Source: Actinomycetes bacterium (GTDB lineage Bacteria > Auribacterota > JAJCYG01). From it: 64,000 nucleotides of DNA. Of the stretch, positions 6,006-64,000 are shown piece by piece. The DNA lies in contig JAJCYG010000002.1 in NCBI GenBank assembly GCA_029263055.1, positions 21,362 through 85,361 of the forward strand, given 5' to 3'. The notes under the pieces are model-generated. The model had not been told where the DNA came from and ran no database searches. It saw nothing but the letters and a program-made list of their open reading frames with translations. The position numbers and the translations under genes are program-made. The first letter of the stretch is position 1. Each line of letters begins with the position of its first letter.

Positions 6006-8306
6006 ATGAAACGAAGCTGTTTTCCTCGCTGGTCTGTCCTGTTAATCACTCTTCTAACTTTTTCACCCTTGAATATACCGATTCTGTCGCAAAACTATTT
6101 AGCTCCGACCCGTTCTGGAGTCAATATTGTTTATGAAAAACTACAAGTAGGGTCTGTTTATTCTGCTTCTGCTTCAGTTGATGAAAATCGACAAAATGGG
6201 TATGCAGGTTTTTCTTTAGATCATAATTGGCCACATTTAAACAAAGAACTTACAACCGCTTTATTTGGTGGTAGCTATGGAATAGATGGTGTGATCCTTC
6301 ACGGTATGCATACCTCTTCATTGAGCTTAGATGCTTTGGCTGAACAGTTGAGTTTAAATGTGAATACAGACTATAAAGTTGTTTCTGAAGAATCAAAATA
6401 TAAGTTTCCTGTGGCCGTTGGAGAGAAAATAGATTTTCAGATGACAGTTCTTAAGATTGATGATGCAGGGATTGCTACTGTTGAAATTATTGGAAAAAAT
6501 TCAGCGGATAAAGTTGTTTTAAAGCAGACTGTTAAGCTCGCTGAATCAGGAGGAACGTCTACAGAATTAGAAGCAGCAGTTGCTTCTAAAGAACCGCCTT
6601 CGAGTTCTTATCTAAGTGAGGTATATCCTTCTTTAGAACCGTTTAAACGAGAAGCACCACCTGTTTATCTTCAAGGAAAAAATCTTTCTTTTCAGTGGAA
6701 CAATGACAGGGCAATTGCTGACTTAAGAGCTCTTTTTTCAGACTCAAAATTTAGCGATGTCAAATTAGCTAAAGCCATTACAACTTATGTGGCAGCTAAA
6801 ATGTTTCCCAGCAATTTGTTTGCGATCTCACGCATTACTGAGATCGATCAAGATATTTCTTTAGAAGGTCCTTTTACCATTGAAGCTGAGGTAGAGAGTT
6901 TTGGAAAAGAGGGTAAGCAGCGAGGGAGAAGTTTGACTCGACTTAAGGTTAAAGATAAAGAAGGAGCTCTTTTGTTTCAAGCAGAAATTGGAATGTCTGC
7001 TTTTACATATACCCGTGATGAATTAAAAGCATTATCAAGAAGTAGAGATCCTGAAACAAACTTAGCTTCAATCATCCGTGGTAAAAATCAATTTGAACTT
7101 GAAATGATTTTTGATGCTATTTTAAAAGCAGATATCTCTGGAGTTGAATTTATTGATGAGTACCATAAAGCGATTGCGGAAGATCCTGGAAAGACTTTAG
7201 ATGCAGCAAAAGCTCTCTTGGCAGAAAAAGAATTAAAAGTGGCTGTTGTGGGTGTTGGCGGTATTGGTGGAGGTGTGGCTGAAGCATTGGGGCAAATACC
7301 AGGAGTTAAGTTGACTGTGATTACTCGCAGTGATGCAGGTGCTACACGACTTCGTGAAAAATTTGCTAATGCTGGGATTACAGAGTACGAAGAAGTTCGT
7401 TTGCGACCAGCTGCGACTGTTTTTGAGCCGTTAAAAGAGGTGATTGATAGTCTTTACCTAAGAATTGATGCGTTTCGAAGACTTTCTGAGTCATTACCTA
7501 CTTTGAAATCAATGATGGAATTGATTCGAGGTAAAGCAAACGAAAGAGAATTAAATACTGAAAGTTATGTAAAAGCTGTTTTTGAAGCCAAAGAAAAAAT
7601 GGAGGGACTAGATGTACTCTTTATTGGAACTGGAAAAACAGATAACAAAGATACTCTTTTACCGCGTAAATGGGAAACACCTGAAGATATTGTGAAACAT
7701 TTAAAGGTTTCGGGTGATATCACAAATGTGAATCAACGTTATGTTGAAGCAGCCTTTACTGCGGCGGCTGCAAACCGTGCCAACAAAATATTTGTGGTTG
7801 GTTCCGTGCATGGAAAGCATATGGGGAATGCTTTTGTGGCTGCTTATTCTCGGAGTAAAGCTTCCAATGCTCGACTTGCAGAGACTTGGCCTCTAGCTGG
7901 TGCGGCTGACCCTGAATCAATGGGAATTTCTCTTGAAGGGGATTATATTTTGAGTCGGATGACTGCAGGAGTGGCTATGGCTGTTTTGCGTGGAACCAAA
8001 CTCGGCTTTTTTATGACGCCTAAACAGGTGGCTGAAGCTGCGACTTGGTTGATTGCTTATCACCATCATGAAGAGTTAGGATACATGGCAAAGCATCGTA
8101 AAAAAGAAGGTGTGATGATTCCAGATACATCAACAGCCGTTGCTTCAGGTGCGCATCAAGTGGCTGTGCCGGGTGATGCAAGTGTGGCGTTGATTAAAGC
8201 AAAAACAGCACCCACGAAAAAGTTGACGCCTAAGTCTGCTCCAAAAATTGAAACACAATTAAGTGGTGGATTAAGTGCTGCCGCTTTAGTTGGAGCAGCG
8301 ATCTAA
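6006..8306 (+). CDS. Leader-tagged fusion: double MaoC-type hot-dog (enoyl-CoA hydratase/dehydratase) + SDR oxidoreductase
   Basis: I moved the start to ATG 6006 (GAGG 6 nt upstream; the track starts at 5958). Hot-dog 1 is GYAGFSLDHNWPHLN...ILHGMHTSS (around nt 6150-6540). Hot-dog 2 lies around 6600-7010. The SDR Rossmann motif VAVVGVGGIGGG is near nt 7249 and the catalytic YSRSK (YxxxK) near nt 7846. Leader ...LNIPILSQNYLAPTRS; C-terminus ...LVGAAI. Confidence 0.75.
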   Translation: MKRSCFPRWSVLLITLLTFSPLNIPILSQNYLAPTRSGVNIVYEKLQVGSVYSASASVDENRQNGYAGFSLDHNWPHLNKELTTALFGGSYGIDGVILHGMHTSSLSLDALAEQLSLNVNTDYKVVSEESKYKFPVAVGEKIDFQMTVLKIDDAGIATVEIIGKNSADKVVLKQTVKLAESGGTSTELEAAVASKEPPSSSYLSEVYPSLEPFKREAPPVYLQGKNLSFQWNNDRAIADLRALFSDSKFSDVKLAKAITTYVAAKMFPSNLFAISRITEIDQDISLEGPFTIEAEVESFGKEGKQRGRSLTRLKVKDKEGALLFQAEIGMSAFTYTRDELKALSRSRDPETNLASIIRGKNQFELEMIFDAILKADISGVEFIDEYHKAIAEDPGKTLDAAKALLAEKELKVAVVGVGGIGGGVAEALGQIPGVKLTVITRSDAGATRLREKFANAGITEYEEVRLRPAATVFEPLKEVIDSLYLRIDAFRRLSESLPTLKSMMELIRGKANERELNTESYVKAVFEAKEKMEGLDVLFIGTGKTDNKDTLLPRKWETPEDIVKHLKVSGDITNVNQRYVEAAFTAAAANRANKIFVVGSVHGKHMGNAFVAAYSRSKASNARLAETWPLAGAADPESMGISLEGDYILSRMTAGVAMAVLRGTKLGFFMTPKQVAEAATWLIAYHHHEELGYMAKHRKKEGVMIPDTSTAVASGAHQVAVPGDASVALIKAKTAPTKKLTPKSAPKIETQLSGGLSAAALVGAAI

Positions 8307-8307
8307 A

Positions 8308-9126
8308 TTAAAGTGTGGTTTGGGCTGCCCTTAGGGCAGCCAGGCCTGCTTCAATTTTGCGGTCTAATTCTTTTTGATGAGCTTGATAAGCTAACTCTTC
8401 CTGACGTGCTTTTTCTGATTCTATTTCTGCTGCTTGATCTAATTCCTCTTGAACGCTGTACCAATCTTCTAGTGTGAATGGCTGCGCTCCATCTTTCCAT
8501 GCTTCGAGTTCAGGAATAAAAAATTGGGGTGCTTCTTGTTCCAGTTTTAGGAGCAACCAAACAGAAAAAGTGGTTTGCATTTCTTCGAGTTCTTCAACAG
8601 TTACTTCTAATTCTTCGATGATTGCTGTTGCAGTGAGTGGCGTTCTTGTTTCAGTTTTTCTGTTTTTGGCTTGAGCTAATTTTATTTTTAATTGAGAGCT
8701 ATGTTTGGCAATAATCTGCCATGCTGTGATCACTTGCATCATATCTGGATCTTCTTTTTCTTCTCTTAATTTTCGAGCTAATGCACCTACGGCATAACTT
8801 TGATCTGCTCCATCTCGAACTAAATCTTCTTCTGTCCAGCCCCAATCCTCTAATACGAGGTGGGCGATATCTTCGCGATTTGAAGGGGGAATAGAAGGGC
8901 GAACTTGAAGGGAGTCTGTTAGGGCTCTTTGCTCATCTATTTCAGCAAGCATTTCTTGGGTTATCCATGGGTTATTAAACTCTCCTTCCTTTATAAGGGC
9001 CTTTTTATGTAGTTTGATGAATTCTGATGTGGCTGCGAGGTAGTTTTTGCTGTTTTGTTGTTTGTAAGAGGGTAAGTTTATGCTGCTAATAAAGATAATT
9101 AAAATAGTTAATAATTTTTGACCCAT
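8308..9126 (-). CDS. Leader-tagged acidic coiled-coil protein (hypothetical)
   Basis: 272 aa. N-terminus MGQKLLTILIIFISSINLPSYKQQNSKNYLAATSE matches the leader of the neighbouring giant genes. The protein is Glu/Asp-rich and helical, and ends ...AAQTTL. It is transcribed divergently from 9353. Confidence 0.6.
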   Translation of the reverse strand: MGQKLLTILIIFISSINLPSYKQQNSKNYLAATSEFIKLHKKALIKEGEFNNPWITQEMLAEIDEQRALTDSLQVRPSIPPSNREDIAHLVLEDWGWTEEDLVRDGADQSYAVGALARKLREEKEDPDMMQVITAWQIIAKHSSQLKIKLAQAKNRKTETRTPLTATAIIEELEVTVEELEEMQTTFSVWLLLKLEQEAPQFFIPELEAWKDGAQPFTLEDWYSVQEELDQAAEIESEKARQEELAYQAHQKELDRKIEAGLAALRAAQTTL

Positions 9127-9352: not shown

Positions 9353-12300
9353 ATGGAAGCATTGCATCCTTCAGCTGTAAGCCGTTCGTCAGTTTTTTAT
9401 CGAGTCAGTTCTATTTTATTAGCTTTATTTCTTATCCAGCCTATTCCCAATAAAATATCAAAACAAAATAAAAACTTAGCTCCAAAAACAATTGCAAGCT
9501 CTGTCAGCTTTGCTCAACCACAATTAGCCCCTCTCTTACTTTCACAAAATGTTTGGACAGTTGATGAAACCAAGGTGTTAGGCACAATGCTAGATCCAAA
9601 TCCTGACGGCTCCTTTACATTGCCTCCAAAGCGCCGTGTGATGGGCTTGGCTCGAGATCCAGAGAATAAAGAGGGTCTTTATCAAACTGCTAATGGGAAT
9701 TGGCATGGACGGCCTACTGATGCGATCCAAGAGCGCATTGTGGATAACTTTAAAGGCGAAATTGCTATGACAGCTAATTTACAAGCAGCGCTCTTTAAGA
9801 TTGTTAATCAAATAGCTTCTAATCCAAGTCTAACTTCTGAAAATTGGCCAGCTGTTGTTTCTAGTGCTGCTTTTAAAGAAAAGGTACAGCAAGAGACGGC
9901 TGTGATTGGCAAAACTTTAGATCAAGTTCTATATATTGTTGAGCAATTAGGAAATCAAATTACTTCAAAAAAACTCAAAGTTAAAAAGCCTGGTGCGTTG
10001 CAAACTGCTTATGCTGAGTTGATGCAAATCTTTTTAGGGCCTGATGAAGTGATTGTAGAAGGATTTGCTTCAGGGTTAAATGCTAATGGAGATTGGGCTT
10101 CAACAGGTTTTCCTATTTCTATTATTGGAAATGATTTCCATGTGTTGGGATCTGACTTGTATGGCCGAGTGATTGCTGCGGGCCGAAATGTAAAACGTTT
10201 TAAAGTAGGCGACATGGCTGTGTTTCAAACCAGTATGCATGATAAAGATGATCCCAATGCGCATGGGGGCCATCCAGGAAAATTAAAAAGTTATCACATT
10301 ACAGGTTATGAAGATCCAATTGGAACGTTTACAGATTTTTATAAAAACGATGCTATGGCTTTTATGCCGGTGACAGAAGAAGAAGTCAAAAAGAAGGTTC
10401 AGGTTTTAGATGGTGGCAAAATTCGAACAGGTGCCACAGTTGAAGAAATGTCGAGTTATGGTTTGGTGCTTCCTACCGTTGAGCATTCTTTAAACCGCTT
10501 GGGTGTGGCCAAGAATAGCGTTGTGATTATGGAAGGTGGAAATGGGGGAACCGGTCGTTATGGCATTCAAGCCGCTAAAGCTCGGGGTGCTTATGTGATT
10601 GGTGTGGTCTCTTCTGAAGCACGGGGTCAAGAAGTGATGCAACTGGGGGCCGACGCTTATATAAACCGAAGAGATTCTCAGTTGGTTCAAGTGGATGATG
10701 CGTTGTGGATGATTGATAAATTTTTGAAAACAGAGACAACCGTTCCTGAAATCGAACATTCAATGGTTCTCGATGAAGAGTTTGATTTAGGAAAATTAAG
10801 AGAGAAGTTAGAAAATCTTATTACTTTTTTAAAAACAACCACACTTCAAGAGGCGATTAAAAAAACAAGTTTAATTCTTGAAGGCGTTTCTAAAAAAGAA
10901 GCCGGTTTTTATTATACAGAGAACTATAAACGACTAGAAACTTCTATTAATAAATTGCTCTCAATTGAAAAATTGCAACCTGGTTTTGTCTTTCGCTCTG
11001 TTCAAGTGTTGAATGCCAATGCAACGCATGAAGATATGAGGAAAGTTAATGAAGACTATGTTGAGTCTGTTAAAAAAGCAGTGAAACAGATTTGGAAAAC
11101 CAATGGTCTTACACGAAAAAGCTTTTTAGCAGATGCGGTGATCAACTTTATGGGAACTCAAACCTATGGTCGCCATGCCATGTCTGTTCGAGCAGGTGAT
11201 TTTTTAAATGGAGATGATTTAGGTGGAAGTACAGCTTCGTTTGGTGGGGGATCTGGTTTTAAAGTTCAGTATCCAGGCCAAGAAGGAATCACAAATATCG
11301 ATACCATGATGAAGCGAATCAGTAAATACCGCCGCCGTGCGGGTATTGATGACCATATTAAAAAAGTGGTTGTGATGGTGGGGGAACGTGATGGAGCAAA
11401 AGTTGAAGTAGAAGAAATGGTCAGTTCTCCTGGAAGAAAAGTATTGGTTGTGGTGCGCAGTGAAAAAGATCTTCAAAGGGTTTTGGAGTGGGGTTTGTTA
11501 AGAGAAGGAATCGATGGAATTATTAATACCTCTGCACCCAAACAAAAGATTATTGTCGAAGGGGATGTTGAGAGCAAAATAGAACAGCTTCAAGCATTAA
11601 GAAAAAGCTCTCTTGTGCGTCAACCAACAGCCATTGTGGTTGAAACTAAAGAAGAGAAAAATAAAATCATTGCTTCTCCTTCTTTTAATAAAGACTTAGA
11701 TGTTGTTTATTCACGGGATGACGATTATGTGGTGACCAGCCTTGCTGAAATGGATGTTGATGATATTGAGCGGCAAAAAGTAGAAGACCAAAAAGCAGGG
11801 ATTAAAAGAAACTATGTTTTTCTTGTTCAAAATAAAGGTGAAAAAGGAAAAGTCTTAAATTTTTATATGAAAGTAAACAAGTGGGTTAAGCGGGGGATGT
11901 TTCATAAGAAAAGAGACATCTTTTTGGAGCCTTACACGATTCAGGCGAATTTAGATAATCCAATGCCAGAGACTCCAATGCCTCTTTCTTATACACCGAC
12001 TCAAGCAGAGCTTAAAGCTCAAGGAAAAAAGGAAAGAGCTTATGCCGCGTGGTTAAATAATGATGCGCGTGGTTTAGGGAAAGCTATTTGGCTTCATTGG
12101 GGGAAAGGAAGTTCTCCTGATCTTGTTTTTGGGCGTGCAGGTTGGCCTACATCAATGGCATCTCTTATCTATGTTTTAGATCGATTTGGTCAAGTGGCGG
12201 TTCGGGGTGATATGTCGAATAAAATGTATGACTTTGATATCCGTCATTTCTGGATGTTTCAAAAAGTGATTTTAACAGCCACTCAAGCGATGATTGGAAC

Positions 12301-13171
12301 TCACTATGCGTCGCCTCGAGAATCTTTAGATGCACATAAGCTAGTTAAAGAAGGAGTGGTTAAGTTGGCCCCTGTGACTGTTTATCCTTGGGAACAAACA
12401 GGAAAAGCTCAAGAAGAAATGGTTAAAGGAAAAAATGTGATTTTGATTGGATCGCCTAAAGCAGGGCTTCAATCGTTGAAAGAAGTGCAAGCTGAAAATA
12501 TCAAACGCTTTTCTGTTGAATTAGGAAGCGAAGATCAAGCAACACGTGAGGCTGCGGCAGCGCAATTGCATTATCAAGCGAGTCTTTTAGCAGATAAAGC
12601 GATTGCTGATTACAGTCAAGTGCAAGGTTTGATTGACCTTTTAGCTAAACCAGCCACTTGTGGTGTGTGTGTGGAACCTGAAACGTTTGAGCAGATTAAA
12701 CAGGCATGGGGCAATCCAAAAGTACACACCATGGAATCGCAAAATGCACGTGAGTTTGAAATTGCTCTACCAGGTGGGATTCACCTAGATATTTTAACTC
12801 CACTAGATCGAGAAAAAGATTCTGCTTTGGTGACTCATCTCAACAAACGAGATGAAGGGATTCAACAAGTTGAAATTTTTACAACAGATGTGGCAAAAGT
12901 AGTTGAAGTGATTAATGCCAATAAATCTGTCTTGGGTTCAGGAACAAGTACTGAAAAACCTTTTCCTGGAATCACCGGAGAAAATGTGGCGTTTCAATTA
13001 CTGAAATTAAAATCAGGTGGAAGAGTCTTAATGGAATTTGTTCAGGCAAGTGCAGAGCAGATTGCTCAGTTAGAAAGTGACCAAAGAACTTCTGCTCGTG
13101 TTGAGCGTAAAGGTCCTTTCTCAGGGGATTGGTTAACAGGTGTTTTAGCATCTTTGGAATCAAGTATTTAA
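9353..13171 (+). CDS. Leader-tagged fusion: crotonyl-CoA carboxylase/reductase-like MDR domain (split by a large insertion) + VOC/methylmalonyl-CoA-epimerase-like domain
   Basis: 1272 aa with a GGGGAG RBS. The MDR/Ccr-like N-part lies around nt 10040-10680 (GDMAVFQ..., SYHITGYEDPIGTFTDFYKNDAMAFMPV, VIMEGGNGGTGRYGIQAAKARGAYVIGVVSS). The Ccr-like C-part lies around nt 12060-12460 (GLGKAIWLHWGKGSSPDLVFGRAG...FDIRHFWMFQKVI...GTHYASPRESLDAHKLVKEGVV...). The VOC-like domain lies around nt 12650-13060 (EGIQQVEIFTTDV...GRVLMEFVQ). Leader ...QPIPNKISKQNKNLAPKT; C-terminus ...LESSI. Confidence 0.75.
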   Translation: MEALHPSAVSRSSVFYRVSSILLALFLIQPIPNKISKQNKNLAPKTIASSVSFAQPQLAPLLLSQNVWTVDETKVLGTMLDPNPDGSFTLPPKRRVMGLARDPENKEGLYQTANGNWHGRPTDAIQERIVDNFKGEIAMTANLQAALFKIVNQIASNPSLTSENWPAVVSSAAFKEKVQQETAVIGKTLDQVLYIVEQLGNQITSKKLKVKKPGALQTAYAELMQIFLGPDEVIVEGFASGLNANGDWASTGFPISIIGNDFHVLGSDLYGRVIAAGRNVKRFKVGDMAVFQTSMHDKDDPNAHGGHPGKLKSYHITGYEDPIGTFTDFYKNDAMAFMPVTEEEVKKKVQVLDGGKIRTGATVEEMSSYGLVLPTVEHSLNRLGVAKNSVVIMEGGNGGTGRYGIQAAKARGAYVIGVVSSEARGQEVMQLGADAYINRRDSQLVQVDDALWMIDKFLKTETTVPEIEHSMVLDEEFDLGKLREKLENLITFLKTTTLQEAIKKTSLILEGVSKKEAGFYYTENYKRLETSINKLLSIEKLQPGFVFRSVQVLNANATHEDMRKVNEDYVESVKKAVKQIWKTNGLTRKSFLADAVINFMGTQTYGRHAMSVRAGDFLNGDDLGGSTASFGGGSGFKVQYPGQEGITNIDTMMKRISKYRRRAGIDDHIKKVVVMVGERDGAKVEVEEMVSSPGRKVLVVVRSEKDLQRVLEWGLLREGIDGIINTSAPKQKIIVEGDVESKIEQLQALRKSSLVRQPTAIVVETKEEKNKIIASPSFNKDLDVVYSRDDDYVVTSLAEMDVDDIERQKVEDQKAGIKRNYVFLVQNKGEKGKVLNFYMKVNKWVKRGMFHKKRDIFLEPYTIQANLDNPMPETPMPLSYTPTQAELKAQGKKERAYAAWLNNDARGLGKAIWLHWGKGSSPDLVFGRAGWPTSMASLIYVLDRFGQVAVRGDMSNKMYDFDIRHFWMFQKVILTATQAMIGTHYASPRESLDAHKLVKEGVVKLAPVTVYPWEQTGKAQEEMVKGKNVILIGSPKAGLQSLKEVQAENIKRFSVELGSEDQATREAAAAQLHYQASLLADKAIADYSQVQGLIDLLAKPATCGVCVEPETFEQIKQAWGNPKVHTMESQNAREFEIALPGGIHLDILTPLDREKDSALVTHLNKRDEGIQQVEIFTTDVAKVVEVINANKSVLGSGTSTEKPFPGITGENVAFQLLKLKSGGRVLMEFVQASAEQIAQLESDQRTSARVERKGPFSGDWLTGVLASLESSI

Positions 13172-13203: not shown

Positions 13204-16200
13204 ATGTTGCGTTTTGTTTCTGGATTAGTGGCAGTGATGTTTTTTGTGAGCTCAGTTGTGACGGTTGATATGCGTTATGTGGGAGCACCCATTCAGAAAC
13301 AAGAAATGTTAGCACCGGCCTCTACAGGAGTGGTCTCTTTAGACTCGGTCTTGAATACACTTGCGTCTATTGCTGAAGGAGAAGCGCTTTTGGATGCTTC
13401 TTTTGATGCGGCTTTGCAAGCACTTCCTTCATTAGAACTCAATCGTAAAGCTGTTTTTGCCTTGAATGCATTGTTGTTACAGCCAATGCCAGGAGCAAGC
13501 GAACAAGAATATGTTGATGCTAAGTCTAAAATCATTGAAGCAATGCTTCAAATTAATGATGGTTTTGCTTTAACAGCTTTAATTACTTTTCGTCATTTGA
13601 TCCAGAAAAAACAAAATCCAGAATTGCGACCTTTAAGCCCGGGGTATTCTTCAGAGTTAGTTTGGGGTATGGGTAAAAAGACAGGAGCCTTAGTAAAAGA
13701 GTTGTTAGATGAGGTTCCTGTTTTAAGTGAAGAGAATGCTAAGTTACTTGCTGCAGGTGCTAAAGAGGCTTGGAGTCAATTGCATTCAGAATCTTATTTA
13801 CCTCACTGGTCTGAACACGTTTTTCCTGCAAATCATCTTCGGATGCTTCAAAAGTCATATTTAGACCAAGCTCCTTATTTGTTGCGTGATTTAGAAGATG
13901 CTGTGGCTCTATCTTTAAAAGTTCAAGGGCGAATTACTTTAGCTAAAATTCAAGCAGAAGGGGAATTTAGTGCTAAAAAAGATAGACTTGATCCCGATGC
14001 GCCAATGCGGTTGCACCCTGGTAACCGTTGGGTTGCTTTGCGTCCTAATAATTTGGGGACTTCTTTTTCCGCGGCTGACTTTGTTTGGTTACGTGATAAT
14101 TTGTTGATTGAGGATTATGATTATCCAAGTCAAAAACGTTTGGCCTTTGATGGAGTGGTGATTCCTAAAGCAATGGATCCAGAAGAAGTCCGCATTGTTT
14201 CGCGTATTCTACGTTTAATTGAAGATAAAAATGATGTGGCACGTGGAACCATGAAAATGGGTTACTTGATTGAAGACCCTACTTCTGCGATTGCTACATA
14301 TGGTTTTGCTAGTGCAGATGAAACTGTGGTGGCGGGTAACTATGGTGTGGCTGACTGGACTGCTTCAACAGGAGGTCGTCCTGCTGCTCAAGAAAAATAC
14401 AATGCTGCTTTGTGGGCCAGAAAAAGAACCGCAGTTGGTTTTCATGCGGCTAAGAGTGCGCACAATCCGCGTGGGGTTGATGCGATTGAAGCGATCAGTG
14501 TGCCGCTCACAGAAAAAGATTCAAAAAGAGAATCACGCCAAGCCCGTCAAGCTGGAATGGATGGAAAATGGTCGGTTCACCCAAATCATATTAAAGGAAT
14601 TATTCAAGAAGGCTGGCCTTTTCACGAAAGTCGGATGACCCGTAAACCTTTAGGGGATTGGACTGACTTTAAACCCTATGATGAAGCAGAGTTAGAGCGT
14701 CGGGCAGCAGAAGGGATTCCTTTAGTTGATCGAGAACCAGCTATTGCTAAAGCGGTTCAACCTCAACGTGCTTCAATTATTATTAATGCTAAAGACTTAG
14801 AACAAATCGAGCAAGCCCTTCAATTACCTTTAGATCAAATTACTTTAAATATTTCTGGTTCTGAAAACTTAGATGCTTTAGCAGTATTACTTGAAAAATA
14901 CAAAACAACAAATAAAAGCCGTTTAGCTTTTCTTTTAGATGCTTCAAGTTTAGATCAAGATGCGTTAGAAAAATTTGGTGCGTCTTGGGATCTATTTGCT
15001 GGAAAAGTAGTCTTTAGCGGTTTGACATTAGACAATGTGACAAGCCCTGATCAAATTAGACAAGTCGACGCATTTCTTAAAAGTCGTTTAGAAAAAGATC
15101 CCACAATTCGTCCTGAGTTGTTTCAAGTTCAAGCACGTATTACATCTAAAGAAATGATTGACCATTCCTTGCTTGAAGGTCGTGATGTTGATTTTTATGA
15201 TGATGCGTGGCAAGCAGCAGATGTGCAATGGGCTTCTGCACCTGAAACCTGGACACATAAAACAGCAGATCGTCTGTTTCAAATTTCTCGCGCTAGTGAT
15301 TATGTGGGAACCTTGGTTTTTGCGGTTCCTGGTTTAGCTAATGACCCGGTTGCTAAAGGTCACTTGCTGTCTGCTGCTAAAGCAGCTGAAGTAGAAGTGG
15401 TGGATGCTTCTGTGGTTGAAGGGGACAATTGGTTGTTGATTGCAGAGCAGATGGCTGAAATTGGTTATCGCGGCCAAGAAATCCCTTCTTTAGATCGTTT
15501 GGAAGGAGCGCTAAAACAATATTCTCCTTCACCTGCATTGATCAACCGTAGTTTAGATGTGACCTTTCAATATGACATGGCTGATGTGTTTGGTGGATTG
15601 GGTGCGATTGCCTATGCGCGTCCTGATGGAGCCACTGAAATTGTCGATGAAGCAACTGCTAAAATCGATCGCGGTGTGGTGGAAGTAGCAGCTGTGGCTG
15701 ATCTTTTTTCACCGGATCAACGTTCTCAATACTTACGCTTGTTGGCTGTGTTGCATAACACGCGTGTTCCTTTTCCTATTAATGAAGAAGAAATTCAAGT
15801 ATTAGAAAATGCCAATGTTTCAGATCAATTTGAAGCGCTTAAAGCAAAACTTTCAGCACAAGATCTTCCGGTGATTAAAATTACTGCAGAAGCATTAGGC
15901 TCTAATTATGAAGAGCGTTTAGCTGGATTAAAAGCAATCTCTCAATTAGCGGTTCAATCAAAAAGTAAGACAGGTCGTTATCCTTTAGTTTTGGTTGAAG
16001 GTTCTGCTGATATTCATTTAGGTCTGATGGCTGATGAACTTGAACCAGAAATAAAATCTCAAGTTGTGGGAATTACTCGTACAGAAAAAGAAGTGTTTGT
16101 CTCTTTTACACATGCCACAAGTTATGAAGTGGCTAAAGCAACTGTGTTGTGGTTGAAATCAGAAGAGCAAGGGTATAACAAAAATACAATCCGTATTTTT

Positions 16201-45987: not shown

Positions 45988-46533
45988 TTAACGCATCATA
46001 TTGCTTTTCTTCTTTGCCATGGCTGCCATTTCGCTGTTGCCAAGTAGGTCATAGGCAGTATAGATCATGCGCCAATCATGTTTGCTTCGAGCATATTGAG
46101 CGGCTTCGTTAAAGTAATAATCTGCCAGTCCTGGGCGATTCGCATCTAGAAAAGCGAGTCCTAACTCAACGTTATCTTCAGTTGTCTTACGACGATTGTG
46201 ATGGGCTAAATGATATTGGGATAGACCATGAATGTCTTGGCCTAATCTACGGTACAGATCTCCAAGATCTACTTTATATGAGATTGTGTGGTGTTTGGCT
46301 TTACGGGCTTGTTGGCTCCAGTAACTAGCGGCTTCCCAGCCTTGTTCCTCGTAATTTTGATCTGCCGCGTCCACAGTGTGGTTGAAGCGGTAAATGCATC
46401 CTTTGCCACAATCATGAAACGATTTAGGTTGTGGGTGCTGCTCTTTAGACCAAGATCTCATTCCATCAGCTGATGCAGAAGCTGCAAGCACCAAACAGGC
46501 TAAGAATCCGGTTAGAGTAAGTTTTAAATTCAT
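45988..46533 (-). CDS. Secreted hypothetical protein (canonical Sec signal peptide)
   Basis: 181 aa. MNLKLTLTGFLACLVLAASASA|DG with a classical AxA site. No catalytic motif recognised. Confidence 0.6.
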   Translation of the reverse strand: MNLKLTLTGFLACLVLAASASADGMRSWSKEQHPQPKSFHDCGKGCIYRFNHTVDAADQNYEEQGWEAASYWSQQARKAKHHTISYKVDLGDLYRRLGQDIHGLSQYHLAHHNRRKTTEDNVELGLAFLDANRPGLADYYFNEAAQYARSKHDWRMIYTAYDLLGNSEMAAMAKKKSNMMR

Positions 46534-49874: not shown

Positions 49875-49878
49875 TTAA

Positions 49879-51402: not shown

Positions 51403-51405
51403 TGT

Positions 51406-52687: not shown

Positions 52688-53116
52688 ATGAAAAAATGGC
52701 TTCTACTTTTATTGAGTGTTCTTTATTTAACGGGGTGTGGTGAAAAGGCTGATACTGCTTGGGAGAGTAGCTCGCCTAAATCAATCTCAGGAAAAATTAC
52801 GATTTTGCCAGAGTTGAAGGAAAAAGTAGAGACTGGGGATGTGATCTTTGTGATGGCTAAAGGGAAAGGGGGGCCTCCTATTGCAGTGAAAAGGTTGGTC
52901 GTTGACTCTCTTCCAATGAGTTATACCTTATCAGAAGAAAACGATCTGATGTTGCCTGGGTCTGTTTTTCCAGAAAAAATCAATATTACAGCTCGAGTGG
53001 ATAAAGATGGTAATGCTTCTCCTGCGCAACCCGGTGATTTGGGTGGAGAGTATGCTCAGAATCCTGCTCCTGTGGGGAGTAGTCAAATTGATATTGAAAT
53101 AAACCGGCTTTATTAG
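52688..53116 (+). CDS. Lipoprotein, hypothetical
   Basis: 142 aa. Signal peptide with lipobox LTGC (MKKWLLLLLSVLYLTGC). Confidence 0.6.
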   Translation: MKKWLLLLLSVLYLTGCGEKADTAWESSSPKSISGKITILPELKEKVETGDVIFVMAKGKGGPPIAVKRLVVDSLPMSYTLSEENDLMLPGSVFPEKINITARVDKDGNASPAQPGDLGGEYAQNPAPVGSSQIDIEINRLY

Positions 53117-53206: not shown

Positions 53207-53455
53207 ATGAAAGCACTCACTTTAATTATTGCCATCGTCATGGCTTTTGGATTTGTGACTCCAGCAATGGCTCATGACTATGATGGATTAGGCTACGGAA
53301 ATGACCCAGGGGAAATGCTAATGCTTCCATTTAAAGTGGTTTGGGACGTCCTCTCATTGCCATTTTATGTGGCTGGTGGCTTGTTTGGTGGAAGCTATTA
53401 CGAGAGAGGTTATGGTAGTTGGTACACACCATCTTGGGACAATCGTATTAGATAA
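53207..53455 (+). CDS. Small secreted Tyr/Gly-rich protein (hypothetical)
   Basis: 82 aa with an AGGAGGAG RBS. Signal peptide ...VTPAMA|HD. It shares a YYER[SG]Y motif with the 1828-2100 product. Confidence 0.55.
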   Translation: MKALTLIIAIVMAFGFVTPAMAHDYDGLGYGNDPGEMLMLPFKVVWDVLSLPFYVAGGLFGGSYYERGYGSWYTPSWDNRIR

Positions 53456-58320: not shown

Positions 58321-61300
58321 TTGTGTAAAAAGCTTGTCTGTATGTTTCTTTGTTTAAGTTTAGTCACGCCTCCGTTTCAAGGAACGCGTCTTCCTCAAAA
58401 AGAAGTGCCTCAGTATTTATCTCCTCTTTCAACCTTTACCCCAGAAGTGCACTCACTTTTAAATCAAGTGACGCTCAGTCGTTTTTACTTTATGCGCGAA
58501 GATGGAGAATCTGTTTTTAACCCTGCTCAAGTAGAGCAAATGCTCCGTTTTGAAAAAGAGTTTCGTTCGGTTCGATCTTTGCCTTTGATTGGTGATCAAT
58601 TAGGCATGGCTATTTTCTTTTTAAAAGAGAATGGAAGCGTGGATCTTTTTGTGGTTCAAACAGACAAAGAGGGGGCTGTTCAAGTTCAACCATTGCTAGT
58701 TGATTTTATTCCATCTCGTTCTATTCAAGCCATTGACAGTGGTGTGATTAAAGAAGCTTTAGAGGCTGTTGGAGAAGGGGCTGATAAAGAGGTTATTAAA
58801 GAGAGTTTAAAATTGAATATGTGGTTGGAGCAATTTTTAAAATTAGGGGCTCCTATTCCTGAAAGAGATATTGCGCTTGAAGAGGTTGATCTTTCTTCTT
58901 TTGAGCCAGTAAAGATTGATCAAATTGATCTGGAAGCGGCTTGGACTTTAGCTGAAATTCTCAGAGAAAAAGGGTCAAACTCGGCAGAGATAAAGAAACT
59001 GTTTGAAGATAGAATTGATTTTAAAGATCGACTGGTGACTCTCTATCAGGGGATCCAGCAGGGGGAGGTTCCTGGGGCCATTCCTTTTTCAGATCCAAGT
59101 CGCATGTTTGTTTCTCCTCGTGATCAAAAACGTTGGATCAACGAAACCATCAAATGGTTGCGTGCTGGCTTTCCTTTGTCTAAAGCGATCTTTATGGGGG
59201 CTTTGGTTAATTACATTGAAAATATTGATCCGAATCAAATCGGTCAAGATGGCAAACCTCTTGTTGAAAATGGACTTGAAATTTTTGTGGCTGTTTTTCA
59301 GAGCTATTTTAAAGATGAACGTGGGCGAGCAATGAGTCGAGATCAGATTCTGCCTCAAGTTAAAGAATGGATGAAAGAACAAAATTATCCAGGCTTGCCA
59401 GTTCGAGCTGAAGAAGATTTGCTTGAAATGCAGCAGCGAATTCGCTCACAAGTGCGTCACGCCCTTTTTAATGAAACCCCTTCTCTATTTTTAAAGCATG
59501 CTGAAGAGGGGGAGTTTGTTGAAGAAATTCTAAAAGAAGAAACATTGGCTTTGAATGGAAAATGGATTGTGATGCCAATGGGACCTTATAGTGATAAAAA
59601 TCAAATATTAGGCCGGCGAATTCCCGAGAGAATCATTTCTTTTGATTTAGCTCAAGAGGTTGTTCGAAAAGTATTAAGTGAGGAAGGGCATGAAGAAAAA
59701 ATTAGAGAAGCACTCACTGAATTAATCCCAGTGCCAACAAGTCATCGTCAAACCGATGCACATGTGGCCCAGTTTAAATCAAATTGGGAACAATTTGAAA
59801 AGGGTGCATTAGAGGGAGAAGAACTGGCGCGTGCCATAGAAATGATTCGTTGGACAGCAAGTTTTCTTGAAACCCAGAAAGCAGGGCAAGGGCTTAGCTT
59901 TTCAAAAGGAACATTGATTCGGGCATATGAGTCTGCAATGAGTGAGCCCAACAAACCGATTGTTTTGGTTTTAGACAATATTGATGCTTCTTCAGCTAAA
60001 GTACGCAATGGGATTTTTAACCACTTCTTAGAAAAAAGAGAAATGAACATCGTGGGATATGTCAATCCGTTTGATGGAAGTAGCCGTATTACATTGCCTA
60101 AAAATTTACACCTTATCTTTACTGCTTCAAGCCAAGTTCCTGTTAAAGATCAAGCACTCTTAAATCGGCTTCAAAAATATGTTTTACCTGAAGTGACGAT
60201 TGAAGATAGATTAGCGTTAGCTTTAGCTCGGGTTGAAGAATATTATGACGGCACAAGACTAAAGTTAATTGGTCCTACACTCGTTGAAGTCTTTAAGGAA
60301 TTTGAAAACTATTTAGATGAAGAGATTCTTCCCTTTTACCCTTCAGTTGTGACTCATTTATTTGAACGACTTGAAGGTCTTGCTAAGGAAAAAGGAGAAA
60401 AATGGACTTTGGATACGCTTGCAACCGAACTTCACTTAATTCTTTTAGATCAAATCCCAAATCCAGAAAAGCGTCAACAGTTTAAAGTCTATTTAGATAA
60501 CAAAGGGTTTCCATTTTATGAGGGTTTAGTAGAAACACCTTATTGGTTTGATGAGTCGGGTGATTTGGTGGTTTATGGAGTTACTGTTGGACTAAATGAA
60601 GGTTTGAAAGAAAGAATACGAGCCGTTACTGTTTCTGAACGTAATCTAGAAAAAAGAAAATGGGCGCAGGAAAGAGAACTCTATTTGTGGCGCAATTCAC
60701 CGCAAGAGCGTAAAGCAGGTGTGGTGTTGCAGAGCCAATCAATTCGAATGCTCGCTTCGTTAGTGCGTCAAATCAAATACAACAATCGTGTGATTCAAGT
60801 GGTGGGTCCTACTGGAGTGGGTAAAACGTTTGTGGGTGAAGCTCTAGCTATTTGGCGAAATCAATCAAGTTACTCTGAACCCACTCATAAGCGTTCTGAA
60901 CAAGAACAATGGACAGGGTTTTACGAAATCACAGCTGCAGGTGAGTTTGTTTACAATGACCAAACTCCTTTTATGGATATGATTCGAAATGGTGGAGCTG
61001 ACTTAAAGAGTGAACTCAACGCCAAAGGAGATTTTAATCGAACCGCTTACATGAGTTGGTATTTGAATCAAATTGCTAAGAAGAGAAAATCATTGGTGTT
61101 GCCTTTTGTTCGAGATGGAGAGCTTAACGAAACTTCGGAAGAGCCTATTCACGACAACTATTGGATGTTGATTGATATTAATCCTGAGGGGGTTTATGGC
61201 CATCGTTATCGATTAAACCCTGAACTTGCTTCTTTGAGTGGACAGATTTACTTAGATGGGAACTATACGTCAGAAGATTATAAGAAAATGTTGCGAATGG

Positions 61301-64000
61301 CGCTTGAAGAGAGTGCCTTAAGTGAAGGTCAAAAAACAAAGGCGATTGCTCTGCTTTCAGAAGTTCATCAAACATTAGCTGAAGCTTTAATCGCAGGTGA
61401 GTTTGCTGAGAGTGATTCGACTGTTTTAACATTAAGGGAATTGCTGAATCGTTCACTCAACCAATTATTAGGCCTGACTCAAGAAACATCCTCATTAACC
61501 TTTGAAGAAATGCTTTCTCAAGTGGTTGAAGATAACTATCTTTCTTTTTGGAATGCGGAAGAGGATTATTTGCTCGCATTGGAAAAAGTGAATCCGTTAC
61601 TTAAAAGTGTTCGTTCGCCTGAAGTGCGTCTTAATCGACATGTGCATAAGCAGGTTGAAAAACAACTTGATCGTTGGTTAAATCTGGCGTTGAAAAATAA
61701 GAGTCTGCGCTCTATTCCTCCGGTTCACCTCCGTTTTGCTGTGGAGTCAGATGGAGCAGATGTGGGGGCTCAATTAGCTAAAAAGAATAATTGGGGGTAT
61801 GAAAAAGCCCTGATTAGTGGGTTTACAGAAGAGTATGACTTAAAGGGAGCCTTTATTCCTATTCGCCAGCAGTTCACGTTAAAAGAAGCAGAAGAGTTGA
61901 TTGCCACATATGAAGCGCTTGATCCTGAATATGTGCGGCAAGTGACGTTAGAGGTGCTTCAAGACATTAATCAAGAAGACAAGCTTGTTATTGCGGAGCG
62001 CCTTTATAGTGTAGAGAGAGCAAGAAGATGGAACGCGCAACTTAAATGGGCCGGAGGACTTTTAGTTCGAAAAATATTAGAAGCACAAGAACAGAGTGAA
62101 AAAGTTTTTTTAGTGGAGTTAGAAGGCTTTCACCGGTTAGACCCTGAAGTAGCGATTATGCTCAACGAGTTTTTTCTTTCAGGAACCCTTTATTTGCCAG
62201 GTAGAGAACCAATGATCATTCCGAAAAATTTAATTTTCTTTTTGAGCTCTCCAATTGAAATACCACTTGAAATTTCTCCGGCAGAACAGTCGCGGCATTG
62301 GCGTGTGACATTATATGATCACGAGATTGAACAAAAGATCGAACTCATAAATAGAGCTCTTCAATCAAGTTCTGCTTTAGCCACTCAAGTAGCAGTAAGA
62401 TTACAGATTGTTACAGCGTTAATGGAACAATGGAAAGGTTTAAATCAGCTCTTAGAAGAACAAGACCGTGAAGAGTTTGTGCGAGGCACTTCTTATTGGA
62501 CTTCCTATGCACAAACAATTGCTTATTTATATGAAACAAATGGTAACGATCTTAATGCGGCTTTAGAAAAAGGAAAAACCCTCTTTCTTGGAGCGACTTT
62601 TGGAAGCGGTATGGGAGAAGAGCAAGAAACCATTCCTATTCAATGGAAAGATAACGATGAAGAAAATAAAATGAGTTTTTTAAATGATTTTTCTGTGCTC
62701 GATTTTGTCTTGGATCATACGATTGGAACCTCTGAAGAGGGAGGCGCTATTAACGAAGAATCATTAGAAACGTTTCTTGATGAAGTCATCCATACAAATA
62801 ACACGCTTCAAGAAAAAATAAATAATTTGTTAAATGGTCAAAACCAACACTTGAAAAGTTATCCTCATAAAAACTTAAACCCTCAAGTACTCCGTTCGGG
62901 TGATTTGGTTTTATTTAATGAGAAGTATTTATTGTTTTTGGGGTGGGATAGCAAAGGAAAGCCCCTTCTCTTAAGATCAGAGAAGGGTCATAAAATGGTT
63001 CGTATTCATAGAAGTCTTCCTAAAGAGGCTGTTCTCTTATCTCGAGTCCATCTAGAAGAACATGCCGCAGAACTAAAGGAGTTCTTAGCCTTAAAACAAG
63101 AAGAGCTCTTAAGAGTCCGTTATCAAAATGTGTTTTCTAAGTTGCGATTTTTAAGAGATAAAGTGGATTCTAAAGAGGTGGAACAGGTGACATCATTTTT
63201 AGACACCTTATTAAGTGACGCCAATATTAAAGAGTTTCAAGAAAAAACAGCTTCTGTTCAAAAAGAGTTTGATCCTGAGAATGATACATATGGAGTGGTT
63301 ATTGTTGAGGGGCGTTTGGGAGTGGTGGGAGATGGAAAAGTAGTGTTACTCGGAGATCAACTAAAAACCTTAGTTTCTTCCCCTGCATCCTTTGTAGGCA
63401 GAAAGGGACAATTTGTTCCCTTTTCAGCATTTGCCCACCTTGGAATTAAAGAAGTTGAGGTGACTCGCTTAAACGAAGAAGGAGAAAAAAAATTAGGTGA
63501 AGCGATTCACTTTATAGGTTTAGCACAAAAAGGAAGTGATATTACCTGGTGGCTCAAATTAGAGAATCATCTTAAATTGGCAAACAGCATCTTGGGTCAA
63601 GGTGGTGATTCTGTAGAAGCGCTGAATGAGTGGATTGGCGATAATGAAGAGGTTGCTAGTACTCAAGTACAGACAACACTTTCTAACTATGGGTTAACAC
63701 TTGCTGATGTGAAGTACGCTGAATCATTTCATCTTTATAATCTTCCTGATTCTGATGCTAAAAAATTAGATAGATTAGAGAAAATAAAAAATCAGTTAAG
63801 AGCTTCGGACCGTGATATGGCAGAGACCGATGCTTATCAATATAACACCATTGAAGAAGTCGTAAAGATGGTCCACGAGATTCCTGATGAATTGTTTGTC
63901 TTAGGTAAATGGTTGAAGCGTTATTTTGAAGTCCAAGACTTAATTAAGATTGGTAATCAAGTTTATCGTGTTTCAAGAATAGAAGGCCCTAATGTTATTG
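58321..64000 (+). CDS. Leader-tagged giant multi-AAA+ (MoxR/midasin-like AAA_5 modules) protein, 3'-truncated by the window edge
   Basis: The frame is open from 58270 to 64000 with no stop on manual translation. It is missing from the ORF track because it has no in-window stop. The start is uncertain: TTG 58321 (GAGG 9 nt upstream), TTG 58303 or ATG 58342. Leader LCKKLVCMFLCLSLVTPPFQGTRLPQKEVPQYLSPLS. Intact Walker A VVGPTGVGKTF near nt 60810. Flanking degenerate modules: VLVLDNID...LHLIFTASS around nt 59950-60130, and FLVELEGFHRLDPEVAIMLNEFFLSGTLYLPGREPMIIPKNLIFFLSSP around 62105-62260. Confidence 0.7.
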   Translation, partial: MCKKLVCMFLCLSLVTPPFQGTRLPQKEVPQYLSPLSTFTPEVHSLLNQVTLSRFYFMREDGESVFNPAQVEQMLRFEKEFRSVRSLPLIGDQLGMAIFFLKENGSVDLFVVQTDKEGAVQVQPLLVDFIPSRSIQAIDSGVIKEALEAVGEGADKEVIKESLKLNMWLEQFLKLGAPIPERDIALEEVDLSSFEPVKIDQIDLEAAWTLAEILREKGSNSAEIKKLFEDRIDFKDRLVTLYQGIQQGEVPGAIPFSDPSRMFVSPRDQKRWINETIKWLRAGFPLSKAIFMGALVNYIENIDPNQIGQDGKPLVENGLEIFVAVFQSYFKDERGRAMSRDQILPQVKEWMKEQNYPGLPVRAEEDLLEMQQRIRSQVRHALFNETPSLFLKHAEEGEFVEEILKEETLALNGKWIVMPMGPYSDKNQILGRRIPERIISFDLAQEVVRKVLSEEGHEEKIREALTELIPVPTSHRQTDAHVAQFKSNWEQFEKGALEGEELARAIEMIRWTASFLETQKAGQGLSFSKGTLIRAYESAMSEPNKPIVLVLDNIDASSAKVRNGIFNHFLEKREMNIVGYVNPFDGSSRITLPKNLHLIFTASSQVPVKDQALLNRLQKYVLPEVTIEDRLALALARVEEYYDGTRLKLIGPTLVEVFKEFENYLDEEILPFYPSVVTHLFERLEGLAKEKGEKWTLDTLATELHLILLDQIPNPEKRQQFKVYLDNKGFPFYEGLVETPYWFDESGDLVVYGVTVGLNEGLKERIRAVTVSERNLEKRKWAQERELYLWRNSPQERKAGVVLQSQSIRMLASLVRQIKYNNRVIQVVGPTGVGKTFVGEALAIWRNQSSYSEPTHKRSEQEQWTGFYEITAAGEFVYNDQTPFMDMIRNGGADLKSELNAKGDFNRTAYMSWYLNQIAKKRKSLVLPFVRDGELNETSEEPIHDNYWMLIDINPEGVYGHRYRLNPELASLSGQIYLDGNYTSEDYKKMLRMALEESALSEGQKTKAIALLSEVHQTLAEALIAGEFAESDSTVLTLRELLNRSLNQLLGLTQETSSLTFEEMLSQVVEDNYLSFWNAEEDYLLALEKVNPLLKSVRSPEVRLNRHVHKQVEKQLDRWLNLALKNKSLRSIPPVHLRFAVESDGADVGAQLAKKNNWGYEKALISGFTEEYDLKGAFIPIRQQFTLKEAEELIATYEALDPEYVRQVTLEVLQDINQEDKLVIAERLYSVERARRWNAQLKWAGGLLVRKILEAQEQSEKVFLVELEGFHRLDPEVAIMLNEFFLSGTLYLPGREPMIIPKNLIFFLSSPIEIPLEISPAEQSRHWRVTLYDHEIEQKIELINRALQSSSALATQVAVRLQIVTALMEQWKGLNQLLEEQDREEFVRGTSYWTSYAQTIAYLYETNGNDLNAALEKGKTLFLGATFGSGMGEEQETIPIQWKDNDEENKMSFLNDFSVLDFVLDHTIGTSEEGGAINEESLETFLDEVIHTNNTLQEKINNLLNGQNQHLKSYPHKNLNPQVLRSGDLVLFNEKYLLFLGWDSKGKPLLLRSEKGHKMVRIHRSLPKEAVLLSRVHLEEHAAELKEFLALKQEELLRVRYQNVFSKLRFLRDKVDSKEVEQVTSFLDTLLSDANIKEFQEKTASVQKEFDPENDTYGVVIVEGRLGVVGDGKVVLLGDQLKTLVSSPASFVGRKGQFVPFSAFAHLGIKEVEVTRLNEEGEKKLGEAIHFIGLAQKGSDITWWLKLENHLKLANSILGQGGDSVEALNEWIGDNEEVASTQVQTTLSNYGLTLADVKYAESFHLYNLPDSDAKKLDRLEKIKNQLRASDRDMAETDAYQYNTIEEVVKMVHEIPDELFVLGKWLKRYFEVQDLIKIGNQVYRVSRIEGPNVI

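Follow-up and report, generated by a model that had tools for sequence, protein, structure and literature searches.

The ESPR of type 5 secretion (PF13018; PMC8151025) is a precedent for very large exported proteins that carry conserved extended signal peptides. Here a comparable signature is described on ten proteins encoded in a 64,000-nucleotide stretch of contig JAJCYG010000002.1 (the whole stretch is referred to as the window). The proteins carry a common N-terminal leader with a short box, typically L-A-P, and a C-terminal tail that ends in isoleucine or leucine wherever it is visible. This signature, or tag, exists, is selective for very long metabolic enzymes (megaenzymes) and is conserved in their orthologues, and its N- and C-terminal parts co-occur. 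The ESPR, like the tag, is a sequence-conserved, family-specific elaboration of a Sec signal on very large proteins that are, or in our case may be, exported. Autotransporter passenger domains are also cysteine-poor. The two systems differ in that there is no sequence match between them, in that the conserved part of the tag comprises the n- and h-regions plus a post-cleavage box, and in cargo: ESPR cargo consists of adhesins and toxins, whereas the tag is found on metabolic enzymes that have no beta-barrel translocator domain and bear the C-terminal signature in addition.

Other described systems are similar in part. In Gram-positive surface proteins, the YSIRK-G/S and KxYKxGKxW signal-peptide motifs direct one class of cargo to a special export site or an accessory Sec system, but motifs, phylum and cargo are different, and at the other end these cargos have LPXTG anchors instead of a free aliphatic C-terminus. 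PEP-CTERM, LPXTG, GlyGly-CTERM and the C-terminal domain (CTD) of the type IX secretion system are also lineage-specific tags common to a cargo set within a genome; they are C-terminal transmembrane (TM) helices or beta-sandwiches of ~80-100 amino acids (aa), and the window cargo has neither. In eukaryotes, the peroxisomal and glycosomal targeting signals PTS1 and PTS2 are short terminal peptides on glycolytic enzymes that send a whole pathway to a compartment, but that system imports folded proteins and uses one signal each, whereas the tag involves both termini. Some tails of the related lineages described below (-SKV, -SKL, -SKI) resemble the PTS1 sequence -SKL; this is an analogy only, and nothing shows common descent. 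The stramenopile TPI-GAPDH fusions, in which fused glycolytic enzymes carry an N-terminal targeting signal and lower glycolysis is relocated (PMC3527533), are alike in these respects but differ in signal type and organelle and have no C-terminal tag.

For Omnitrophota, the candidate phylum in which the relatives of these proteins were found, a 2026 preprint reported a signal peptide or TM helices in 94% of long proteins, and ATPase domains (SecA-DEAD, AAA+) on giant proteins have been predicted by others to be extracellular. Glycolysis and phosphoenolpyruvate carboxykinase (PEPCK) of this phylum were modelled as ordinary metabolism by Seymour et al. (2023). In the prior literature these enzymes are taken as ordinary cytoplasmic metabolism, or their predicted localisation is questioned; full-text searches gave no description of the leader, boxes, tail or cysteine depletion. 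When six leaders were scanned against Pfam and NCBIfam (E<=10), no relevant model was retrieved, with ESPR, YSIRK and KxYKxGKxW unmatched, and an NCBIfam scan of four tails gave no match.

Several known signals were considered and rejected. A signal peptidase II lipoprotein signal does not fit, as no cysteine follows the hydrophobic stretch in any of the ten tagged proteins and a true lipobox is present in the untagged protein at 52688. For a Tat signal, there is no RR in the window leaders, and the L-R-P type leaders of related lineages (LRP leaders, see below) have mostly KK or RK with different spacing. The class III prepilin site (G followed by a cut before F or M, ahead of the hydrophobic stretch and with Glu at +5) is absent from all leaders. 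PEP-CTERM, LPXTG and GlyGly-CTERM tags were excluded by the absence of a C-terminal hydrophobic segment and of any NCBIfam match. The type IX CTD was excluded because the window cargos have no common C-terminal domain and the LRP-lineage module is alpha/beta, Rossmann-like and followed by helices. Finally, no shell or encapsulin family was present among the window proteins scanned for bacterial microcompartment or encapsulin cargo loading, and the leader is uniformly hydrophobic rather than amphipathic.

Leader, tail and cysteine content of the tagged proteins

Translation of the window gave every leader, box and tail that had been listed for the ten open reading frames in the initial annotation (Table 1). 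All ten leaders have one to four basic residues, an uncharged hydrophobic stretch of 13-18 aa, usually a Pro-containing turn and, after a polar spacer, a short box. Within residues 20-50, the strict form L-[AS]-P was present in 8/10 tagged proteins compared to 0/24 of the other window proteins, which served as the comparison set (Fisher p = 2.5e-6); the two exceptions were LQP (38539) and LAA (8308). The background of this motif, six occurrences in 18,007 residues, corresponds to ~0.01 expected per protein. The leaders at 40940 and 13204, which had been called plainly homologous, are paralogous, with 12/23 residues identical.

The 10 window leaders and 61 LRP-type leaders all place a basic n-region and then a hydrophobic h-region at the extreme N-terminus, in the manner of Sec signals. 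By eye, a plausible -3/-1 site was seen among the window leaders at 29912 (TYA↓L) and perhaps at 40940, 38539 and 6006; the others have a Pro-rich turn. Since this site is missing from most of them, the window leaders may act as uncleaved signal-anchors. The earlier description of the leader as non-canonical holds for the window lineage only; the LRP leaders, read by eye, have a canonical -3/-1 site. The leader is not a generic signal peptide: as had been pointed out, ordinary exported proteins of the window use classical signals (45988, ASASA↓DG; 53207, PAMA↓HD; 1828, EAKA↓DY) and a lipobox (52688), and neither the ordinary secreted proteins of the window nor those of eight related loci have the signature.

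It is hardly credible that the leaders are an annotation artefact in which translation starts downstream of the hydrophobic stretch. Some leaders do contain internal Met residues (13204), and the start codon at 58321 is TTG, but a downstream Met is missing from several leaders, most starts that include the leader follow a Shine-Dalgarno-like sequence (GGAGG lies 8 nt 5' of the ATG at 13204), and conservation of the leader as protein sequence extends to orthologues and to 52 proteins of independent assemblies. For the first tagged protein, starts at 5958 and 6006 are both possible; the ATG at 6006 is likelier because it is preceded by GAGG.

As had been noted, all nine visible C-termini of tagged proteins end in I or L, compared to 4/24 of the other window proteins (p = 1.9e-5), and an [AST][IL] ending was found in 9/9 versus 1/24 (p = 2.6e-7). 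At position -5, each of the nine has V, L, F or A. The tail is borne by unrelated C-terminal domains, and the cargos have no common N- or C-terminal domain beyond the short motifs. The proposed small-small-Ile/Leu formula is accurate for the window lineage, but across the phylum only a final V/I/L holds; the penultimate residue, which is small in the window lineage, is mostly K, R or Q elsewhere, and the lineages have in common only the aliphatic last residue and a hydrophobic one at -4 or -5. The suggestion that the tail is a PDZ ligand did not gain specific support. A free non-polar C-terminal residue is key in the ligands of PDZ domains and tail-specific proteases (Prc/Ctp, DegS), as it is in the tag, but PDZ ligands usually conserve P0 and P-2, whereas the window tails conserve P0 (I/L in 9/9) and P-1 (small in 9/9) with P-2 variable, and there was no PDZ protein in the window or the related loci.

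Cysteine depletion is a third shared trait, beyond the leader and tail of the initial annotation. Cysteine scarcity is typical of proteins that cross the outer membrane unfolded. After residue 45, the ten tagged proteins contain 7 cysteines in 12,566 aa (0.056%), compared to 94 in 7,031 aa (1.34%) for the 24 neighbours (Fisher p = 8e-34; Mann-Whitney p = 6e-5), and four of the ten, including the 2718 aa chain at 13204, have none outside the leader. The difference extends to the two PEPCKs, 2.5 kb apart, with 4 cysteines in the 561 aa of the leaderless pckA product and none in the 1122 aa of the tagged enolase-PEPCK fusion. In eight related loci the cysteine content was 0.21% in the cargo, 0.89% in ordinary signal-peptide proteins and 1.24% in all others, so that the depletion is cargo-specific and not general to the exported proteins there. 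Exclusion of cysteine is a documented adaptation of exported proteins (PMC2823432).

Table 1. Tagged proteins of the window and contrasting ordinary proteins, with domains from Pfam and NCBIfam scans (↓, cleavage site or position read as one)
Feature	Coordinates	Strand	Length (aa)	Domains or type	Leader and box	C-terminus	Cysteines
Tagged protein 1	6006..8306	+	766	MaoC-type hydratase; weak ApbA/ketopantoate-reductase-like match	leader 6006-6107; LAP box 6099-6107	...VGAAI	sole Cys in leader
Tagged protein 2	8308..9126	-	272	no family	leader 9126-9031; box variant LAA 9039-9031	...AQTTL	zero
Tagged protein 3	9353..13171	+	1272	crotonyl-CoA carboxylase/reductase-like MDR domain	LAP box 9476-9484	...LESSI	
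Tagged protein 4	13204..21360	+	2718	HpcH/malyl-CoA-lyase-like, MaoC, acyl-CoA ligase and acyl-CoA dehydrogenase domains	LAP box 13309-13317	...VAVAI	zero
Tagged protein 5	21473..29911	+	2812	methylmalonyl-CoA-mutase-type, B12-binding and carboxyltransferase alpha/beta domains	LAP box 21566-21574	...VGSSI	
Tagged protein 6	29912..31246	+	444	KAS III/FabH-like	leader end TYA↓LAP; box 29990-29998	...LNASL	
Tagged protein 7	31262..34237	+	991	no family	LSP box 31349-31357	...LEEAI	zero
Tagged protein 8	38539..40719	+	726	~eight tandem XRE-type helix-turn-helix (HTH) repeats	box variant LQP 38644-38652	...FEIAI	
Tagged protein 9	40940..44308	+	1122	enolase fused to ATP-type PEPCK	LAP box 41042-41050	...ASISI	zero
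Tagged protein 10	58321..64000 (runs beyond window end)	+	>1893	weak AAA_5/AAA_16 matches below Pfam curated cut-offs	TTG start; LSP box 58417-58425	outside window	
Contrast: leaderless pckA	36779..38464	+	561	ATP-type PEPCK	none	...SELIP	4
Contrast: ordinary secreted protein	45988..46533	-			classical signal ..LAASASA↓DG; no box	no I/L tail	
Contrast: ordinary lipoprotein	52688..53116	+			lipobox LTGC		
Contrast: small secreted protein	53207..53455	+		Gly/Tyr-rich	classical signal ..TPAMA↓HD		

The cargo consists mostly of cytoplasm-type enzymes joined in very long chains. Outside the leader, no TM-like segment was found in the tagged proteins except for one hydrophobic stretch in the AMP-binding domain of 13204. 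Cys205 is the sole cysteine outside the leader of the KAS III-like protein (29912) and is taken by us to be the catalytic cysteine of KAS III enzymes. What we take to be the hallmark active-site blocks of enolase, and the P-loop GLSGTGKS of the PEPCK part, are visible by eye in 40940. An exact look-up of this fusion gave no match, and a homologue search with the protein at 31262 returned itself as the sole match.

The signature in related Omnitrophota

The closest homologues of the enolase-PEPCK fusion (40940) were multi-enzyme fusions from metagenome-assembled genomes of Candidatus Omnitrophota, so that the window probably belongs to this phylum or to a close neighbour of it. One syntenic relative (L096/L097) has the gene order of the window: a giant, the mutase giant, KAS III, murU, amgK and a PEPCK gene. 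Its mutase giant (P0111), which is 52% identical to 21473, has the N-terminus MDFIRTFLSLFLTFLLLIPVPLPVFEKQSADLLAPRGG, an LLAP box and the tail ...VADSL; the KAS III orthologue (...VPIQTLQVIAPQSS) has an IAP box and the tail ...VEQAI, and the upstream giant ends in ...VATSI. Leader and box, tail and low cysteine (0-0.44%) are all retained in this relative, and the adjacent leaderless proteins have normal cysteine and other endings, with the exception of the leaderless PEPCK, which has 1 Cys in 633 aa. Pairwise alignments with the window proteins showed a constant box and a divergent spacer around it. A second relative, the closest to the enolase-PEPCK fusion (L084, 73% identity), retains the spacer, zero cysteine and a tail, ...TAVSI; its similarity to the window starts exactly at the box position.

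A leaderless pckA near a tagged PEPCK, to which attention had been drawn, is a real feature, and the relative L096 also has a leaderless PEPCK at the syntenic position. This enzyme is ATP-type in the window (36779-38464) and GTP-type (PEPCK_GTP) in L096 (13236-15137); the swap, beside a conserved murU-amgK pair, is a non-orthologous replacement.

In other Omnitrophota, glycolysis is organised as megaenzymes in conserved arrays: FBA-PFK-GAPDH, PPDK and TIM-(GAPDH)-PGK-enolase. Homologues of the enolase fusion carry a leader, an LRP box and a tail of the form ..F-x-x-K-V. The leader consensus is M-F-x-Q-F-x-K-K-t-L-F-S-K-I-I-S-...-F-I-L-T-S-V-P-V-x-S-Y-A followed by x-x-D-x-L-R-P-x-A; by eye these are textbook Sec/signal peptidase I signals with a conserved ..[SGAV]-[YFH]-A↓ cleavage-like site and the L-R-P box a few residues later. 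A 45-column profile (alignment A2), built from 15 LRP leaders only, was searched against 1.84 billion representative proteins and gave 52 matches at E<=1e-3. All 52 align at the protein N-terminus, the single offset case starting at an internal Met. The 35 longer new matches contained, by Pfam, only glycolytic domains (PGK 15, TIM 15, enolase 5, GAPDH 5, PPDK 4, PFK 2 and GPI/PGI 2) and one DHH domain; binding proteins, hydrolases and other usual secreted proteins were not found among them.

The tail accompanies the leader in these organisms as well. Among profile matches of at least 400 aa, which were selected by the N-terminus alone and include truncated fragments, 20/31 end in V/I/L (binomial p = 9e-8 against 20%). 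In the eight related loci this ending was found in 23/23 cargo proteins, 6/18 ordinary signal-peptide proteins and 3/35 of all others; the comparison of 23/23 with 9/53 for the latter two classes combined gave a Fisher p of 1.6e-12.

The most likely reading is that the window tag is the 'LAP' form, peculiar to its lineage, of a targeting signature that is spread across Omnitrophota. It is a point against this view that the LRP-leader profile does not match the window leaders (the best window cargo score was E>0.3); direct homology of LAP and LRP leaders was therefore dropped, and the equation of the two rests on architecture, position and orthologous cargo, the enolase domains of the window and LRP lineages being 50-58% identical. 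The C-termini are also built differently. Tails of LRP lineages (..E-F-M-x-K-V or ..T-Y-E-E-T-I-S-K-I) close a conserved ~190 aa C-terminal module, seen in P0003-P0025 and P0066-P0108. It comes in two related types, A, which ends in EFMxKV, and B, which ends in TYEETISKI, and profiles of these modules had no match in the window cargo. In an AlphaFold model (mean pLDDT 83), the type A module is predicted to be a five-stranded Rossmann-like domain followed by helices, with the tail at the end of the last helix; a Foldseek search against PDB returned generic Rossmann-like matches only (E>0.01).

The predicted position of the tail bears on the possibility that there is no dedicated system, and that ordinary Sec signals became alike by duplication or gene conversion among paralogous fusions, the aliphatic C-terminus being a stability or folding feature of a last helix. 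The DNA sequences of leaders from one genome do resemble each other (82% for L003, 62% for the window), the tail varies between lineages ahead of its last residue, no partner gene was found, and the tail forms the end of a long terminal helix in the model. However, the box stays constant between orthologues of 52% identity while the flanking spacer changes, the tail is found on unrelated domains in the window, N- and C-terminal features co-occur in 23/23 (related loci) and 9/9 (window) cases, and both features, like cysteine scarcity, are absent from the ordinary signal-peptide proteins of these organisms. We regard this explanation as unlikely.

Searches for additional relatives gave mixed results. 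A genome-collection scan with a TIM-PGK-enolase alignment was swamped by generic enolases, the only Omnitrophota being L005 and L058; a metagenome scan with the KAS III protein gave no relative, and a second metagenome scan gave four useful loci and leaderless enolases from high-GC contigs. These contigs (L004, L085, L086, L090 and L092) have 58-71% G+C in the cases measured, and the record of L004 bears the label Myxococcota. Their enolases are single-domain proteins with no leader and share 48-54% identity with the Omnitrophota megaenzyme enolase domain, compared to ~35-41% for typical bacterial enolases.

Several observations were made on LRP lineages in passing. One 454 aa protein (P0078) has a leader, two LRP boxes, a type B module and no recognised enzyme domain, and may be a scaffold subunit. 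A second motif, [KR]-D-G-G (e.g. ..ELKKDGG), lies 10-30 residues past the LRP box in P0010-P0025, P0073 and P0106-P0109 and is absent from the window proteins; as a double-glycine leader of C39 type it was rejected, since by eye its spacing is off by one from the consensus. Another cysteine-poor class of giants (L091 7398-14990, P0012, P0017 and P0045) has the leader ..ELALPSP.. or ..FAYTASLNLSGYL..; P0012 and P0017 have enolase and PPDK domains and P0045 has enolase domains. The N-terminal domain of the L091 giant (..IWVNLSPYEQDKII..) resembles a conserved secreted neighbour protein.

A conserved secreted protein of 413-436 aa is encoded directly 3' of the megaenzyme genes in five loci (L001 14688-15929, L087 11906-13150, L098 17691-18932, L099 14634-15938 and L005 12346-13635), followed in most of them by a PilZ gene that gave no informative match and has no window counterpart. 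The secreted protein is 37-50% identical between loci, has normal cysteine and always ends in ..SL or ..RL; Pfam and PDB gave no match for it, and the window encodes no counterpart. We consider it a candidate partner of the tag.

Location of the tagged enzymes

We put at about an even chance the reading that a dedicated targeting signature places these fused, cytoplasm-type megaenzymes outside the producer's cytoplasm, in the periplasm, at the surface or in prey. The sequences favour a location outside the producer's cytoplasm through a positive-inside charge bias, a cleavage-like site in the related leaders and cysteine purging, and do not separate periplasm, surface, prey and internal compartment. 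The flank N-terminal to the hydrophobic stretch is more positive than the C-terminal flank in 8/10 window leaders and in 58/61 LRP leaders (+4.2 versus +1.4).

On this reading, the basic n-region and the hydrophobic stretch would engage the Sec pathway and insert with the N-terminus in and the C-terminus out, as their architecture and charge bias suggest, and the bulk of the polypeptide would be threaded unfolded across the inner membrane. In LRP lineages the leader would then be cut at ..[SGA]-[YF]-A↓, so that only a few residues would precede the D-x-L-R-P box in the mature protein; in the window lineage, where the Pro-rich turn mostly replaces the -3/-1 site, it may stay as a signal-anchor or be cut elsewhere. 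Judging from conservation, a second factor may read the box near the mature N-terminus together with the free aliphatic C-terminus (Phi-x-x-[AST]-[IL]-COOH in the window, V/I/L-COOH phylum-wide), and could serve in retention, in assembly of an enzyme array or in passage across the outer membrane. Cysteine would have been purged from the cargo, save for presumed catalytic need, because folding and work take place outside the reducing cytoplasm.

Several findings weigh against an extracytoplasmic location, and most of them would also fit a cytoplasmic-side tether, in which the megaenzymes sit at the inner face of the inner membrane beside sugar importers, as a membrane-bound metabolon of an ultra-small cell with the termini as docking pegs. 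The cargo needs ATP/ADP, NAD(P)H, CoA, FAD and adenosylcobalamin, which are not expected in an ordinary periplasm, and with a tether all cofactors and substrates would be at hand; the HTH-repeat protein (38539) and the protein with weak AAA+-type matches (58321) are not expected there either. In four lineages (L001, L087, L098 and L099) a same-strand array contains glycolytic megaenzyme genes and then a sugar-type ABC importer (SBP_bac_1 and two permeases), usually with an MFS transporter and a signal-peptide glycoside hydrolase of family GH2 (not in the truncated L087). The synteny of this array is conserved across lineages and fits cytoplasmic glycolysis of imported sugar. Most window leaders, moreover, have no -3/-1 cleavage site, and the leader at 9353 has a reversed charge bias (+4 after versus +2 before the hydrophobic stretch). 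The relative L084 (1-200) has an in-frame stop upstream and no hydrophobic stretch in the 142 nt to the contig end; its missing leader is either a loss, in which case the protein may function without one, or an assembly artefact. The ~190 aa module that the LRP tail closes, Rossmann-like and then helical in the model, could be an assembly domain. Despite these points a tether is rather improbable, as it runs counter to the N-in/C-out charge bias of nearly all LRP and most window leaders, to the conserved ..S-Y-A site, which is meaningful only if it reaches the periplasmic face, and to a 4- to 24-fold cargo-specific cysteine depletion that has no reason in a cytoplasmic protein.

Two more points tell against export. 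According to Seymour et al. (2023), ATP/ADP translocases occur only in Aquiviventia, Omnitrophia and, as a single homologue, Gorgyraia. The proposal of a candidate dedicated sorting system was borne out as far as the signal is concerned, which is real, cargo-selective and conserved at ~52% identity; the sorting machinery was not found, with no protease, translocon or PDZ protein in the window or the related loci and no partner protein identified.

The cofactor problem would be eased if the enzymes were imported into a membrane-bounded compartment inside the cell, a bacterial equivalent of the glycosome or anammoxosome, with a lumen that is topologically outside and carriers that supply nucleotides and cofactors. 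Such a compartment would reconcile the export-type leader and cysteine purging with ATP-, NAD- and CoA-dependent cargo, and it is whole pathways, not single enzymes, that are tagged. Some members of the Planctomycetes-Verrucomicrobia-Chlamydiae (PVC) superphylum, the anammox planctomycetes, have internal compartments, and the glycosome with PTS1/PTS2 is a eukaryotic parallel. Omnitrophota have been grouped with this superphylum in the literature (PMC5945725), and the stramenopile TPI-GAPDH fusions carry mitochondrial presequences (PMC3527533). We nevertheless consider a compartment quite improbable: none has been reported in the Omnitrophota literature examined, the cells are only 0.2-0.3 um across, and the surroundings of the cargo genes showed no gene for a carrier or a coat.

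An extension of the extracytoplasmic reading, that Omnitrophota run ATP-yielding central carbon metabolism outside the cytoplasm with fused megaenzymes sorted there by the leader-plus-tail tag, is offered tentatively, and we lean against it. It would cover glycolysis in many lineages and here also PEP carboxykinase, a B12-dependent mutase, carboxyltransferase and acyl-CoA chemistry, and might take place in an energised periplasm or a space facing the prey, inside attached prey or within an internal compartment. If true, it could also account for the SecA-DEAD and AAA+ ATPase domains predicted to be extracellular on Omnitrophota giants. Enzymes working outside the cytoplasm would represent a new bacterial cell-biological arrangement and a new view of energy harvest by ultra-small predators or epibionts.

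Whatever the location, the export-type N-terminus is not noise, since it is conserved and cargo-selective and goes together with a C-terminal mark and with cysteine purging, and a whole block of central metabolism bears it. Even if the leader proved to be a tether only, its profile combined with the terminal residue would allow the complete cargo of any genome to be listed, and co-occurrence with that set could reveal the missing machinery.

Other genes of the window

The window has ~40% G+C, a strong positive GC skew and ~35 plausible genes. Two of these encode small secreted Gly/Tyr/Ser-rich proteins with classical signal peptides (1828-2139 on the minus strand, ..EAKA↓DY, and 53207-53455 on the plus strand, ..PAMA↓HD). 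A BamD/YfiO-like tetratricopeptide-repeat lipoprotein with a signal peptide is encoded at 55753-56838 (+) and indicates a diderm envelope with the beta-barrel assembly (BAM) machinery.

An 84 aa open reading frame at 53700-53954 (+), MSHEQVTLILSKAMSDKKFLELLLKDTQKACEGFDVSPEEIEALKKQLSETSEAELDQ...GGGAFGDFSGPMGIDDIDI, resembles the leader of a Nif11/NHLP-type precursor of a ribosomally synthesised and post-translationally modified peptide, followed by a GG-containing core; it is the source of the 'DIDI' ending counted in the initial annotation. A radical SAM gene lies at 56851-58233. On the minus strand, 48888-52596 contains a cluster of a GT4 glycosyltransferase, a B12-binding radical SAM protein and an HpnA-like epimerase. 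The best partial matches of the radical SAM protein were to HpnJ/BchE/lipid-type radical SAM enzymes, and the cluster possibly serves lipid or hopanoid modification.

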